This document shows positions 3,296-61,325 of a DNA stretch of 64,000 nucleotides, in pieces. The stretch lies in assembly GCA_965205915.1 (NCBI GenBank), contig OZ242191.1:21410-85409 (forward strand), read 5' to 3'. The DNA is from Dehalococcoidia bacterium. GTDB lineage: Bacteria > Chloroflexota > Dehalococcoidia > UBA6926. A model generated the notes under the pieces. That model was not told where the DNA came from and did not search any database. It worked only from the letters and a program-made list of their open reading frames with translations. Positions within the stretch are counted from its first letter, which is position 1, and each line of letters opens with the position of its first letter. Made by a program: the position numbers and the translations under genes.

Positions 3296-3524
3296 TGGGA
3301 GTGGGGGGCGTTGGATTCCTCGCTGCGCTCGGAATGACAGAGTGGGGCGTGGGAATGACGGAGTGGGGCGTGGGAATGACATGGGGATTGTGATGGGTTG
3401 GCGTTACGGGGTTTGGTTGGGGGAATGTGGGTTTAGATTCCCGCGTTCGCGGGAATGACGGGGTTGGAGGCGGGAATGACGGGGGTGGAGGAAGGGAATG
3501 ACGGAGTGGGGGTTGGTTGGCGGA
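3296..3524. repeat. Intergenic hairpin-repeat cluster (GGAATGAC family) in the pccB/folP divergent region
   Basis: ggattcctcgctgcgctcggaatgacagagtggggcgtgggaatgacggagtggggcgtgggaatgac ... gattcccgcgttcgcgggaatgacggggttggaggcgggaatgacgggggtggaggaagggaatgacgg: a hairpin plus tandem roughly 20-bp units. Confidence 0.85.
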
Positions 3525-3530
3525 GGGGGC

Positions 3531-3552
3531 GGGGCGCGTCGCGACGCGCCCC
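3531..3552. promoter_or_regulatory. Perfect 22-bp palindrome GGGGCGCGTCGCGACGCGCCCC in the divergent pccB/folP intergenic region (candidate operator or hairpin)
   Basis: The sequence equals its own reverse complement and sits about 70-90 nt upstream of the candidate folP start (3592/3622), between two divergently oriented genes. Confidence 0.35.
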
Positions 3553-3621
3553 TACAGGTTAGGTTGCAATTGGGGGTGTGGGAGTTGATGGGTGTTTGAG
3601 TGGGGGCGGCGGACTTATTTG

Positions 3622-4503
3622 ATGGGGATTGTGAACGTTTCGCCTGAGTCGTTTTCGGGGGACGGCTTGGGGGACGTGGATGCTGCTGTCGCGCAGGCGC
3701 TGCGGTTCGTGGAGGAGGGGGCGGACATCCTTGATGTTGGGGGGCAATCGACGCGGCCCCGGTATTCGGCGGCGGTTGAGGTTGGTAGGGCCGCCGCCTT
3801 CGCGGGGGATTCGGGTGGGGCGCGGGGGGATTCGGGTGGGGCCCCCGCCTTCGCGGGGGTGAGGGACAAAGGGTATGACGAGTTGTCCGTTGAGGAGGAG
3901 ATTGGGCGGGTTGTGCCTGTTATCCGGGCCATTAGGGGAAAGACTGACACTCCGATCAGCGTCGATACGTATAAGGCGGGGGTGGCTGAGGCGGCCATAG
4001 AGGCGGGGGCTTCGATTGTCAACGATGTGTGGGGGCTGAAGCGGGATGTAGCGCTGGCGGGGGTGGCGGCTTCGCATGGCACACCGCTTATTTTGATGCA
4101 CAACCAGGAGGGCACGCGGTATACGCGGCTGATTCCGGATGTCGTTGCGAGCTTGCGGCGGAGCGTGGCGATGGCGGTGGCGGCGGGGGTGGCGCGGGAG
4201 CGGATTATCGTCGACCCGGGATTTGGGTTCGGGAAGACTGTCGGTCATAACCTCGAGGTGTTGCGTCGGCTTGGCGAGATCAAGGCGGCGCTGGGGTTGC
4301 CGTTGCTTTTGGGGACGAGTCGGAAGTCGACTATTGGGCGGGTGTTGGATTTACCTGTTGATGATCGTGTCGAGGGAACGGCGGCGACGGTGGCGCTGGG
4401 GATCGCGCAGGGGGCGGACATCGTGCGGATACATGACGTGAGAGAGATGGCGCGGGTTGTGAGGATGACGGACGCGGTGGCGCGCGGCGGGTGGAATGGC
4501 TGA
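3622..4503 (+). CDS. folP: Dihydropteroate synthase, carrying an in-frame insertion of about 30 aa encoded by a repeat element
   Basis: MGIVNVSPESFSGDG...ADILDVGGQSTRP...SVEEEIGRVVPVIRAI...DTYKAGVAEAAIEAGASIVNDVWG...DPGFGFGKT. The track ORF starts 30 nt earlier at 3592. Canonical DHPS N-terminus is MGIxNVTPDSF. Confidence 0.88.
   Translation: MGIVNVSPESFSGDGLGDVDAAVAQALRFVEEGADILDVGGQSTRPRYSAAVEVGRAAAFAGDSGGARGDSGGAPAFAGVRDKGYDELSVEEEIGRVVPVIRAIRGKTDTPISVDTYKAGVAEAAIEAGASIVNDVWGLKRDVALAGVAASHGTPLILMHNQEGTRYTRLIPDVVASLRRSVAMAVAAGVARERIIVDPGFGFGKTVGHNLEVLRRLGEIKAALGLPLLLGTSRKSTIGRVLDLPVDDRVEGTAATVALGIAQGADIVRIHDVREMARVVRMTDAVARGGWNG
3783..3873. repeat. Intragenic copy of the hairpin-repeat family inside folP, retained in frame
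   Basis: gccgccttcgcgggggattcgggtggggcgcggggggattcgggtggggcccccgccttcgcgggggtgag has the same architecture as the intergenic copies at 42816-42900 (ccccgccttcgcgggggattcggg...). It encodes AAVEVGRAAAFAGDSGGARGDSGGAPAFAGVRDKGYDE between the conserved STRP and SVEEE motifs. Confidence 0.7.
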
Positions 4504-5029
4504 CCTCGCCACTGCTTACCTGGGGCTTGGCGCGAATCTTGGCGATCGGGAGCGGGCGCTTAGGGATGCGGTCGCGGAGCTAGGCCGAGATATGAACGTG
4601 GTTGCCGCGTCCTCTTTGTATGAGACGGCGCCGGTGGGGTATTTGGATCAGCCGGCATTCCTTAATGCGTGCGTGGTGGCGCAGACGGAGTTGGGGCCGG
4701 AGGAGCTTCTGGATTTCGTGAAGGGGATAGAGGAACGGGCGGGGCGGGTGGCTAGTTTTCAGAATGCGCCGCGGGTGTTGGACATCGATATCTTGCTGTA
4801 TGTGGATGCGGGCGGGGAGCATGTGGTGATGCAGTCGGAGCGGCTGGAGATTCCGCATCCTCGGATGCATGAGCGGGGGTTTGTGCTGGTTCCGCTTGGG
4901 GAGGTTGCGGGGGGTGTTTTGCATCCGGTGTTGGGGCGGACGGTTGGGGAGTTGAGGGATGAGGTGGGGGATGCTGGGGTCAGCCGCGTTCGCTCAAAAA
5001 CAGATTGGACCAGCGACCAAACACGTTGA
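4496..5029 (+). CDS. folK: 2-amino-4-hydroxy-6-hydroxymethyldihydropteridine pyrophosphokinase (HPPK)
   Basis: MADLATAYLGLGANLGDR...PRVLDIDILLY...EIPHPRMHERGFVLVPL. The start overlaps the folP stop (ATGGCTGA). Confidence 0.85.
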   Translation: MADLATAYLGLGANLGDRERALRDAVAELGRDMNVVAASSLYETAPVGYLDQPAFLNACVVAQTELGPEELLDFVKGIEERAGRVASFQNAPRVLDIDILLYVDAGGEHVVMQSERLEIPHPRMHERGFVLVPLGEVAGGVLHPVLGRTVGELRDEVGDAGVSRVRSKTDWTSDQTR

Positions 5030-59397: not shown

Positions 59398-59444
59398 GGG
59401 CGGCAGCGGCGTGGGTACGGATTACCCGGAGGCTCCGAGGTTCG

Positions 59445-59636
59445 ATGAGCAGAGTAAGAGCACTGATCGGTTATCTGCTTGAGGGCATACCGTGCGTGGT
59501 ACTCGGCATTTGCAGCTACGCCGACTACATCATGGGTAGAGTCGAGAAGCCGACAGCAATTCCGAACGAGGATCGGGACTACCTCCGGGACGTATATTAC
59601 AACCATACGCCGCATCCGGTTTCGTCAGGGCAGTGA
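59445..59636 (+). pseudogene. Chimeric gene remnant: promoter and first 9 codons of a paralog-C-type gene fused to the last about 45 codons of a 45099-type metallopeptidase gene
   Basis: MSRVRALIG(=52184 start)...GICSYADYIMGRVEKPTAIPNEDRDYLRDVYYNHTPHPVSSGQ* (=C-terminus of the 45099..47258 gene). 59506-59640 matches 47125-47262 at nucleotide level. Confidence 0.5.
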
Positions 59637-59650
59637 CAGGAGGTGCAGCG

Positions 59651-61282
59651 ATGTTGGCAATGGTACGCCGAAGACGACGCCTCTACTCCGTTGCTGGAGT
59701 CCTCATAGTCCTGGCCGTGGCGTTGGCAGCCGCCGTCCTCTATGCCGGATCAATGAGTCTGAACGGGAATTCGCCACTGCCGGGCGCGCCTGGAGGCTTG
59801 CAGCGAGAGTCTGGTTGGTATCCTCCCCCCGACTTCCCCCCGACTTCGCTGGAGGAGAGGATAGTGCGGAGTGACGCCATAGCAAGGGTGACTCTGGTAT
59901 CCGCGGCCCAGGTGGTGGAGGAAATCTCCGGATGGCCCAGCCAAGGAGACACTTCGTACGCAAACGCGCTGGAGTTCAGGTTCAATGTACTGGAGCACCT
60001 GAAGGGGAGCGGTGGAAGCGAGGTTGTGGCGATAGCAGTTGACTGGTATGAGTTTTTTGCAACTAGGGCGGAGGCGGGCGCAGGCGCAGAAGACTTCCTG
60101 GGAGAGAGGGACACAAGGTGGGACGCCCGGGAGGCGATAGTGTTCCTGCATGATGACGACCCGTATCTGCCAAGCACCGGGCAAGCGGACAGGTACCTCC
60201 TCTGGTTTCTGCGCAACACCTATGGGCAGGAAATCTACACTATAGCCAGCCCCTCCAAGATGTGGCTGCCGGCGGCGTCTGACAGTCTACCAGTACCAGT
60301 TGACCAGGCGAGGGCATCCAGCGGAGGGACGCAGCGCTTCCTTCTTGAGGAGCCGCCTTCGGGGGGCGGGGCAGTGCTTTCAAGGATGGCGCGGGCCCTG
60401 TCGGGCGATCAGGGCGCGTCGCAGGCCGCCACCATCAACCTGGCGGACATGAAGACAAAGATCGCAGAGCTGGACGCGGAGGTCGGGGAGGGGGACGGCT
60501 CGGAGGAGTACCGGGAGTGCGTCCAGTTCAAGTACGAGTGGGAGAACAATGTAAGCCTAAGGAAGGAAGAACGCGCCGCCCAGGGCGAAGGTTACTACTA
60601 CGAGCGGTACGACCATGCACTGGCCTCCGGGCAGGCGGCGGGCAGCCTGTTCTACACCTACGAGCTCTGGCAAATCTGGGTGATTGACTATGGCGAGACC
60701 ATCCCCAGCAAGTATGCGAGCATGTTCCAGCTGGACGGGCAGGACGAGAACCTTTTCGACGTGGAGTACCCCGGCGAGGTGTCCCCGGAACGTCCCCTCC
60801 CGGCGGGGGACTACAAGTTCTACCTCTTCGCCATGGAACCGGAGGTTCTAGTCTGCGACGGGCTGCCGGATGAGGAGCGGACGAGGTTGGAGCACTTCGT
60901 GACCGTCACCGCTCCCAGTGGGACTCTTCATGAGGCGTTCTTTGACCCGGTGGCTCTGAGCGGTGGCGGTGTCGGGGCGACGGGATCGTCCGGGGTGATT
61001 GATCCTGACGAGTTCACCGTCGGCAGTGATGATGTCGAGATTGATGGCCTGGAGTGGCGGAGCGGGTCGGTGGTGCTGGAGCTGGATGACCATGTTTCGC
61101 TGTCCGGCCAAACGCTGGACTTCATCGAGCTTGACGGGTCTATCGACACTTCGCTGGACTTTGCTGATGCGCTGGTGAATGAGTCTGTTGGGCTGTGGTC
61201 TTGGAGCGTTGATTCGCAGCCGTGGGAGGACGGGGATCTGTTGATGGTGCGGATTCGGGAGACGGATACGGCGGCGGGGTAG
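59651..61282 (+). CDS. Paralog F of the secreted-protein family; recent duplicate of paralog B (N-terminal 400 aa about 95% identical)
   Basis: AGGAGG 7 nt before ATG. MLAMVRRRRRLYSVAGVLIVLAVALAAAVLYAGS... Shared C-module ...VTVTAPSGTLHEAFFDPVALSGGGVGATGSSGVIDPDEFTVGSDDVEIDGLEWRSG...RIRETDTAAG*. Confidence 0.7.
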   Translation: MLAMVRRRRRLYSVAGVLIVLAVALAAAVLYAGSMSLNGNSPLPGAPGGLQRESGWYPPPDFPPTSLEERIVRSDAIARVTLVSAAQVVEEISGWPSQGDTSYANALEFRFNVLEHLKGSGGSEVVAIAVDWYEFFATRAEAGAGAEDFLGERDTRWDAREAIVFLHDDDPYLPSTGQADRYLLWFLRNTYGQEIYTIASPSKMWLPAASDSLPVPVDQARASSGGTQRFLLEEPPSGGGAVLSRMARALSGDQGASQAATINLADMKTKIAELDAEVGEGDGSEEYRECVQFKYEWENNVSLRKEERAAQGEGYYYERYDHALASGQAAGSLFYTYELWQIWVIDYGETIPSKYASMFQLDGQDENLFDVEYPGEVSPERPLPAGDYKFYLFAMEPEVLVCDGLPDEERTRLEHFVTVTAPSGTLHEAFFDPVALSGGGVGATGSSGVIDPDEFTVGSDDVEIDGLEWRSGSVVLELDDHVSLSGQTLDFIELDGSIDTSLDFADALVNESVGLWSWSVDSQPWEDGDLLMVRIRETDTAAG

Positions 61283-61293
61283 GGCTACGGGAT

Positions 61294-61325
61294 GGATTCC
61301 GGTTTTCGCCGGAATGAGGGGACTT
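61294..61325. repeat. Hairpin repeat variant (ccggttttcgccgg stem)
   Basis: ggattccggttttcgccggaatgaggggac. Confidence 0.8.

Follow-up and report, generated by a model that had tools for sequence, protein, structure and literature searches.

Hairpin repeats of the NTS/dRS3 family, with polarised half-site arrays, in a Dehalococcoidia chromosome

The closest described relatives of the repeats treated here are known from Neisseria. The dRS3 palindrome of this genus has the form ATTCCC-N8-GGGAAT (PMC3898611), and the 28-nt Neisseria Transformation Sequence (NTS), CGTCATTCCCGCGMAVGCGGGAATCYRG, described in 2025, extends it (PMC11893778). The NTS is bound and cut by SsnA, a 94-aa single-domain GIY-YIG protein (cd10448), whose substrate is the NTS strand as single-stranded DNA (ssDNA) only, and not the complement, double-stranded DNA (dsDNA) or RNA (PMC11893778). 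In this work, a 64-kb stretch of the chromosome of an uncultured Dehalococcoidia bacterium (contig OZ242191.1), hereafter the window, was analysed for a family of intergenic hairpin repeats, which is compared with the NTS and its nuclease.

The cleavable strand has the structure 5'-CGTCATTC-stem-loop-stem-GAATC-3' and is cut a few nucleotides 5' of GTC; the critical bases are G26 and C49, and the substrate NTS75 yields a 20-nt product (PMC11893778). Binding depends most on the C right after the palindrome, and cutting most on the three nucleotides before it. The loop is dispensable, the two NTS halves may come on separate strands, and a concatemer of first halves is cut in vitro once a second half is annealed (PMC11893778). 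NTS-like sequences, named Ssn-related motifs (SRM), flank ssn homologues across phyla; a SsnA homologue is found in 81% of the genomes with more than 200 SRM copies and is lacking in 19% (PMC11893778). In Neisseria, dRS3 flanks 30-160-bp RS units in intergenic arrays of 200-2700 bp, is the integrase target of the prophage Nf1, and clusters near genes for surface proteins (PMC3898611).

Judged from the sequence comparison, the window repeats belong to the published NTS/dRS3 family, and the main hairpin is almost base for base the NTS. The reverse complement of the NTS, CYRGATTCCCGCBTKCGCGGGAATGACG, is the window consensus. On the - strand of the window the NTS is matched perfectly once (31284-31311), once with one mismatch, five times with two and once with three, that is, at 26-28 of 28 positions in seven copies and at 25 of 28 in one more; on the + strand there is no match. 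The window holds seven dRS3 cores. The flanks GTC and C, which are critical for SsnA, are kept in three of the four hairpin classes described below (A, C and D) as GTCATTC...GAATC on the - strand, and the asymmetry of the loop is tied to these flanks: it reads TTTC or GTTC together with GATTC, which is GAAA or GAAC in NTS orientation, as in the published family. Intergenic spread in many copies and variant stems within conserved flanks are further traits in common. The family, which the initial annotation had called unknown together with its function, is thus a published one with a known nuclease; what is added here is the Dehalococcoidia host, the half-site arrays and the strand polarity.

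The motif GGGAATGACGG, with at most one mismatch, has 40 matches in the window, 39 of them on the + strand, whereas dinucleotide shuffles lead to an expectation of 2.8 +/- 1.6 (maximum 8). The 64 kb hold about 19 hairpins and over 40 half-sites. All of them are located between predicted genes; two fall within over-extended open reading frame (ORF) calls. An element was read directly at each of the 14 sites listed in the initial annotation, with those at 20519-20546 and 35558-35579 being degenerate. Four classes of hairpin share the frame GATTC-stem-loop-stem-GAATGA(C/G). Class A, ATTCCCGCKTTCGCGGGAAT, has seven copies and fits the dRS3 pattern; class B, ATTCCGGCTTTCGCCGGAAT, has about five, including one hybrid and one degenerate; class C, ATTCTGGCC(N4-7)GGCCAGAAT, has two; and class D, ATTCYTCGCTGCGCTCRGAAT, has five. 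The DNA folding energy of classes A-C is -8.2 to -8.8 kcal/mol. A conserved 5' module, GGTTGGGAAATTGAGGCTTTAG, which had been noticed beside some copies, is present at 32250, 32977 and 33574 and in a diverged version at 3296, and always sits 5' of a class D hairpin. Decay is seen in many units, such as GGGGATGAC, GGGAACGAC and those in 27940-27990.

Tandem Repeats Finder detected arrays with a period of 20-22 bp at 3331, 3449, 6532, 18418, 27896, 32384, 33009, 33129 and 33611. The largest have 11.4 copies (18418-18652, 84% matches) and 7.0 copies (32384-32531), so the arrays described earlier stand, with about 11 and 7 units instead of 12 and 8. In NTS orientation, the array unit consists of about 9 nt followed by CGTCATTCCCGC, which comprises the cut-site region, GTC and the 5' arm. 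From the oligonucleotide numbering of the published work (PMC11893778), the cut would fall within each unit, some 8 nt 5' of the palindrome. Each array has one complete hairpin at its end, from which the units extend away on the GTC side, and only the cleavage-side (first) half is repeated in the window. The arrays are therefore a tandem iteration of one half of the same site, and not a separate module of protein-binding sites attached to it, as had been proposed. In all the loci collected, taken together, the GTC-side half forms 65 tandem pairs and the other half 10. Arrays of equal polarity occur in an alphaproteobacterial locus with two ssn copies (L076, where they extend outward on both sides), in Ramlibacter (L042), in another Dehalococcoidia locus (L104), in Hydrogenedentota and Pseudomonadaceae, and in L247, the period being 17-22 bp outside the window. 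These natural arrays are laid out like the concatemer of first halves that was cut in vitro (PMC11893778).

Two readings discarded in the initial annotation are also discarded here. The 20-22-bp units stand head to tail with no spacers between them, which separates them from CRISPR arrays. The hairpins are followed by GACGG and G-rich sequence with no U/T run, and many lie 5' of genes, unlike intrinsic terminators. No family of Rfam at gathering thresholds and no tRNA was found in the window. The elements are as follows.

3296-3381, + strand: diverged 5' module, class D hairpin (3315-3335, ATTCCTCGCTGCGCTCGGAAT) and GAATGAC half-sites at 3353 and 3374; a carboxyltransferase gene (-) lies on one side and folP (+) on the other.
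3433-3504, + strand: class A hairpin (3437-3456) and two further half-site units of 21-22 bp; the complement of 3433-3460 is the NTS with one mismatch.
6516-6578, + strand: class A hairpin (6520-6539) with one more half-site unit; the complement differs from the NTS at two positions.
18403-18652, + strand: class A hairpin (18407-18426), then about 11 tandem 21-bp units (CGCGGGAATGACGGGTGGGGG); flanked by a + strand gene on either side and upstream of the his-type genes for a class I/II aminotransferase and IGPD.
20519-20546, + strand: degenerate hairpin GGTTCCCGTGTCAAGCACGGGAATGG (GGTTC...GGGAATGG), in a convergent intergenic region.
27881-27990, + strand, upstream of lepA: class A hairpin (27885-27904) and half-site units, one of them clean and about three decayed.
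31284-31311, + strand: class A hairpin whose complement matches the NTS consensus perfectly (28/28).
31395-31464, + strand: half-site, class B hairpin (31412-31431, ATTCCGGCTTTCGCCGGAATGAGGGG) and another half-site.
32250-32531, + strand: composite that comprises the 5' module, the class D hairpin at 32276-32296, an additional half-site of class D, a spacer of about 55 bp, class A hairpin (32376-32395) and 7 tandem 21-bp units; within the HpcH-glyoxalase junction, which is closed in the relative L002.
32973-33186, + strand: second composite, which has about 81% identity to 32249-32448; its parts are the 5' module, the class D hairpin at 32998-33018, half-sites, the spacer, the class A hairpin at 33118-33137 and 2 units.
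33569-33750, + strand, immediately upstream of ilvD: 5' module and class D hairpin (33595-33615) with about 6 half-site units.
35558-35579, + strand: degenerate class B hairpin (ATTTTGCTTTCGCCGGAATGAGGGG), downstream of ilvD.
42638-42902, + strand: cluster in a divergent intergenic region, with a hairpin like those of class D (42638-42658), one of class C (42749-42770, ATTCTGGCCGGACGGCCAGAATGACGGG), and also two G/C-rich hairpins and half-sites at 42831 and 42892.
49420-49505, + strand: hairpins of class B (49420-49439) and class C (49483-49505), in a convergent intergenic region; the stop codon of the - strand CoA-transferase gene is 8 nt away.
59245-59306, + strand: hybrid class A/B hairpin with one mismatch, then a G tract of about 40 nt.
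61296-61318, + strand: class B hairpin (ATTCCGGTTTTCGCCGGAATGAGGGG), where the ends of a + strand gene and of the RNase J gene (-) converge.

The G tract at 59267-59306 is nearly pure and lies directly 3' of the hairpin at 59245-59264. The blocks 32250-32531 and 32973-33186 are each built of two hairpins around the conserved spacer of about 55 bp. As in the Neisseria intergenic mosaic elements (NIMEs; PMC3898611), the ATTCCC-N8-GGGAAT core is set in composite intergenic blocks of about 200-300 bp, where hairpins alternate with short repeat modules; unlike them, the window blocks lie beside housekeeping genes and are mainly half-site arrays.

The link between such hairpins and a nuclease gene was observed in other genomes. 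The exact 26-mer GATTCCCGCGTTCGCGGGAATGACGG is present in at least 120 stretches of species-representative genomes from more than ten phyla. Among the matches listed, the hosts include Alpha-, Beta- and Gammaproteobacteria, Desulfobacterota, Chloroflexota/Dehalococcoidia, Hydrogenedentota, Ignavibacteria, Gemmatimonadota, Nitrospirota, Binatia, Planctomycetota and Margulisiibacteriota; 16 of these listed stretches belong to Chloroflexota/Dehalococcoidia, including one (L105) from the same genome as L003, a relative of the window. Eight intact genes for GIY-YIG proteins (PF01541) of about 95 aa stand beside the 26-mer in seven of the listed 8-kb stretches (L019, L039, L044, L062, L067, L076 with two genes, and L092), and an eighth stretch (L088) has a frameshifted copy. 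The usual arrangement is NTS-ssn-reverse NTS, so that the identical sequence frames ssn genes as inverted repeats. In addition, a profile search identified Ssn in a Chloroflexota metagenome-assembled genome (GCA_034423515.1), where the gene is framed by inverted NTS copies and by C-rich/G-rich half-site repeats as in the window. Other Ssn genes have other stem variants within the same GTC...C frame, with which the presence of four stem classes in one genome, a difference from the published systems, is consistent.

The class D hairpin, which at first was assumed to be specific to the lineage, is found in at least 120 metagenome stretches, and 5 of the 120 listed contain Ssn homologues. In two of these (L144 and L184) the hairpin at the end of the gene is of class D. 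In the Ssn homologues that accompany the class D hairpin, the hairpin GATTCTTCGCTGCGCTCAGAATGA is within the gene itself, where it encodes the C-terminus DSSLRSE and the stop codon (L144 175-507, L184 550-951, L214 217-1059, P0127). The possibility that the lineage-specific 5' module is the remnant 3' end of a ssn gene was considered; in frame it reads (V/F)GWEIEALDSSLRSE* against EGWFGAQVDSSLRSE* in L144 (*, stop codon). This was rejected as unsupported: only two residues are alike beyond the hairpin-encoded DSSLRSE, the upstream frames have stops, and the tail was found in no database protein.

Some further arrangements were observed in these collections. A 1.38-Mb contig (L371) carries another SRM variant (CGTCTTACCGGCGAAAGCCGGTATCC) at 10290-10620, downstream of a Ssn gene, with at least five whole hairpins at a period of about 60-70 nt; a gene for an IS110-family transposase is situated about 9 kb upstream. 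At least 120 predicted viral or proviral contigs (IMG/VR, L250-L329) contain the class A 24-mer, some of them in 3-4 copies. Pairs of hairpins placed head to head, 40-100 bp apart, with half-site arrays running outward and no gene between, were seen in L042 (1160-1235) and many times in L126-L191; they look like derivatives of the NTS-ssn-NTS unit.

The pairing of the hairpin is under selection. In 142 independent metagenome copies of class D, collected with a pattern that admitted all four combinations at the Y/R base pair, this pair is T-A in 85, C-G in 56, T.G in one and C.A in none, in agreement with the compensatory stem changes claimed in the initial annotation. Among hairpins collected by their flanks only, 26 of 65 distinct inner sequences have at least four consecutive pairs, against about 1.5 expected. 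In an alignment of 28 distinct flank-selected 24-mers, 95.5% of the cells pair (31-55% in slid controls), and changes on both sides occur in 7 cells against 1.7 in shuffles, a value reached by none of 500. The covariation is real but limited, because the family is highly conserved in sequence. Selection on the structure, either on RNA or on ssDNA, had been postulated; selection and action on the single strand are supported, and RNA is unlikely to be the primary level of action, since the published enzyme does not bind RNA (PMC11893778) and Rfam has no match in the window.

The window is ordinary chromosome, with genes for a carboxyltransferase, FolP, DinG, LepA, IlvD, RNase J, purine and histidine biosynthesis and ABC transporters, and has a G+C content of 60%. 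Homologues of IlvD with 90-99% identity are found on 1.7-2.5-Mb contigs of uncultured bacteria, one of them named Dehalococcoidia, and four syntenic loci reached in this way (L001-L004) were compared with the window. The motif GAATGA[CG][GA]G occurs nine times on the + and once on the - strand in L001, twice on the + strand only in L002, seven times on the + strand only in L003, and is essentially absent from L004, a 78% relative. The genes for HpcH, glyoxalase, pterin-4a dehydratase and IlvD abut or overlap in L002, and the pterin-4a dehydratase gene overlaps ilvD in L003 too; in the window, each of the corresponding operon junctions is filled by a repeat block of 200-340 bp. The block 27811-27986 is missing from L001, which has about 90-95% DNA identity, and the junction is located at a GGGAA direct repeat, the remnant of a half-site; the block 32237-32573 is much shorter in L001. 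Since presence and length differ between genomes of about 90-95% identity, elements have been gained and lost on a short evolutionary scale, and the behaviour like that of repetitive extragenic palindromic (REP) sequences, as initially described, is confirmed. Copies are found outside the window too, in the close relatives L001, L003 and L105 and in many phyla.

The orientation of the hairpins is uniform. The GC skew of the window is unusually strong and uniformly positive (+0.05 to +0.38 per 2 kb, mean about +0.15), the AT skew is negative for the most part, and the + strand holds about two thirds of the genes. The sequence GATTC...GAATGAC is on the G-rich strand in all 37 hairpins of the lineage, 17 of 17 in the window and 20 of 20 in L001-L003 and L105, even where flanking genes point otherwise: eight of the 37 are in convergent intergenic regions and two lie between genes that are both on the opposite strand. 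L105, at 320 kb of the contig that holds L003 at 1.94 Mb, has a skew of -0.11 and genes on the - strand, and its hairpins are flipped. Class D hairpins of metagenomes are on the G-rich strand in 48 cases and on the C-rich strand in 15 (28 and 6 by locus), with no bias relative to flanking genes. The text of PMC11893778 mentions neither arrays of first halves, here of up to 11 units, nor an orientation tied to GC skew; the words tandem, skew and lagging are absent from it.

We propose that the window copies are probably NTS/SRM-type hairpin repeats of the family that is cut by Ssn, spread in the manner of REP sequences in a Dehalococcoidia chromosome. The proposal builds on the NTS sequence identity, the family-wide linkage to ssn, the selection on pairing, the anatomy of the arrays, the insertion/deletion polymorphism and the strand polarity established here. 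A Ssn of about 95 aa would bind the hairpin on ssDNA and on the NTS strand only, which here is always the - strand; its expected substrate in this lineage is the - strand sequence CCGTCATTCCCGCGAACGCGGGAATCTTAA as ssDNA, and the + strand, GATTC...GAATGAC, would be the uncut complement. A Ssn encoded elsewhere in the genome would still act on the window copies. The elements would have spread through intergenic DNA, operon junctions included, and formed composite blocks like those of Neisseria, and the arrays would lengthen and shorten via slipped pairing or recombination between half-sites.

In the standard view, the lagging-strand template, which stays single-stranded for the longest time, is the strand rich in G and T. 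The uniform orientation may thus reflect selection against self-cleavage, in that the strand most often single-stranded must carry the sequence that is not cleavable. Alternatively, C-rich arrays may decay faster on the exposed strand. In strongly GC-skewed genomes, the placement of the uncut strand on the most exposed strand suggests that self-cleavage is a real cost that shapes the orientation of the repeats. In the arrays, a single second half, from the adjacent hairpin arm or in trans, could conceivably pair with any unit. This idea forms part of one joint reading, in which a replication-polarised NTS feature, multi-site arrays, cleavage ladders and selection on the strand go together, and which we regard as doubtful. 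If true, it would be a natural counterpart of the split-site, guide-directed cleavage of ssDNA known only in vitro (PMC11893778); the arrays would be strand-specific cleavage ladders on incoming or displaced ssDNA, as in transformation, conjugation, ssDNA phages and R-loops, and selection would hold the cleavable strand off the lagging-strand template.

Several observations weigh against the proposed classification or narrow it. The class D hairpin is weak and interrupted, with -2.5 kcal/mol, not better than shuffled sequence. In class B, which has GAATGAG, the critical GTC is changed to CTC (CTCATTC on the - strand), and classes B and D may need other paralogues or be inactive. The degenerate SRM pattern of PMC11893778, HGTCWYN(0-2)YYVSBRHN(0-5)WNVSBRGN(0-2)RNCYNB, coded here as a regular expression, matches only one window copy (31284-31311, - strand); the other copies miss it in the last two or three positions of RNCYNB, with TTAA or TAAA instead of YNB. 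Class A hairpins in other phyla show little bias, with 44 on the G-rich and 34 on the C-rich strand. For this reason the argument of self-avoidance is not general, and the claim of polarity is confined to the lineage and to the class D loci of metagenomes. The equation of the G-rich strand with the leading strand of this lineage is an assumption, drawn from the general rule, the negative AT skew and the orientation of the genes. Finally, GIY-YIG genes were sought in the window and its relatives by tblastn, by an HMM made from 11 Ssn sequences and by two regular expressions for motifs. Neither the 64-kb window nor L001-L003 and L105 (about 73 kb) yielded an ssn gene or a remnant of one, and tblastn and hmmsearch found none in the 16 other Chloroflexota stretches.

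The lack of ssn in the approximately 137 kb of lineage DNA examined, which is a difference from the published systems, favours the view that these are relic or selfish repeats, of the NTS family by descent, that lost their Ssn, change by slippage and recombination only and have no present function. The 19% of SRM-rich genomes that have no SsnA homologue (PMC11893778) and the decay of many units point in the same direction. On the other hand, the palindrome is perfect and the GTC and C flanks are intact in the seven class A hairpins, the presence and absence of blocks between closely related genomes indicates recent activity, and the 37:0 orientation indicates continuing selection or a directional process. 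We therefore consider the relic explanation unlikely, although it is the best of the rivals. Because the 81% figure for genomes with more than 200 SRM copies (PMC11893778) combines with the evidence of recent turnover, an active Ssn in this lineage appears rather likely.

Much less probable is a role at the RNA level, with the hairpins as stabilisers of mRNA, processing sites or attenuators for the accompanying + strand genes. Several copies lie within an operon (32250-33750) and would be transcribed, and every window copy adjoins at least one + strand gene. However, Rfam gave no match and a U tract is missing; a palindromic stem would fold in either orientation, yet the orientation is fixed; and orientation is independent of the direction of flanking genes in other genomes, where class A hairpins are co-oriented in 53 cases and anti-oriented in 50. 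Two copies in the relatives lie between genes that are both on the opposite strand, and the published SsnA does not bind RNA (PMC11893778).

A partner of the REP-associated tyrosine transposase (RAYT) or IS200 type was suggested in the initial annotation, and the resemblance to REP sequences and bacterial interspersed mosaic elements (BIMEs) is remarked in PMC11893778. Like REP/BIME, the window copies are intergenic palindromes in clustered mosaics that are polymorphic between relatives, and in both systems ssDNA hairpins are recognised by a small nuclease whose gene they flank. They differ in the sequence signature, which is the NTS and not a GTAG-type REP, in the fold of the enzyme (Y1 HUH against GIY-YIG) and in its chemistry, and Ssn is not known to carry out transposition. 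The gene framed by the hairpins is a GIY-YIG ssDNA nuclease in 13 loci (both scans), and neither Y1_Tnp nor another transposase domain was found in the 45 window ORFs scanned. The IS200/IS605 elements IS608 and ISDra2 share the dependence on ssDNA and an orientation that follows the direction of replication; in IS608-type elements the active strand is on the lagging-strand template, while here, if that template is the G-rich strand, the cleavable strand is the other, C-rich one. Mobilisation of REP/BIME elements by a RAYT is thus highly improbable. Hardly credible is the last alternative, that the arrays are iteron-like or nucleoid-protein binding sites on dsDNA, phased at two helical turns and independent of the nuclease, which the 20-22-bp period and the up to 11 units upstream of genes could suggest: each array starts from a complete hairpin and what it iterates is precisely the cleavage-side half of that hairpin, the same arrangement is found on both outer sides of ssn in L076 and L247, the period of 17-22 bp elsewhere indicates that helical phasing is not conserved, and the copy number at housekeeping genes varies between close relatives.

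With the NTS/SRM classification, a recently described system of nuclease and repeat is placed in uncultured Chloroflexota (Dehalococcoidia), a group that is unmentioned in the text of PMC11893778, where the string "Chloroflex" is absent. The amplification of only the first half across phyla and the placement of the uncut strand in strongly GC-skewed genomes both bear on the role of Ssn outside Neisseria. For annotation, we propose that such blocks be labelled as NTS/SRM repeats, and not as unknown repeats, CRISPR-like arrays or terminators.

Other features of the window were recorded. Between lepA and the HpcH gene are two - strand ORFs, 29864-30496 (no Pfam hit) and 30656-31195 (a small HSDR_N-like PD-(D/E)xK protein). 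They are present in the window and in L001 and not in L002, the G+C content falls to 0.56 there, and they adjoin the sole perfect NTS copy. Two tandem paralogues of the Uma2 family (putative endonucleases), at 37193-38400, have 78% DNA identity and no link to the hairpins. The amidase (35621-37129) is divided in two ORFs, 35621-36208 and 36251-37129, and the split is identical in L002 and L003. Seven + strand paralogues without Pfam hits (45093-47258, 47255-49171, 52184-53809, 53906-55747, 55852-57447, 57572-59212 and 59633-61282) have a common 3' module of about 370 bp with 77-84% DNA identity, and two of the seven share 90% identity over a length of 1.8 kb. Four coding repeats of 18-21 bp, of the Thr/Pro type, are present in three of the seven and in the neighbouring ORF 42998-45088.

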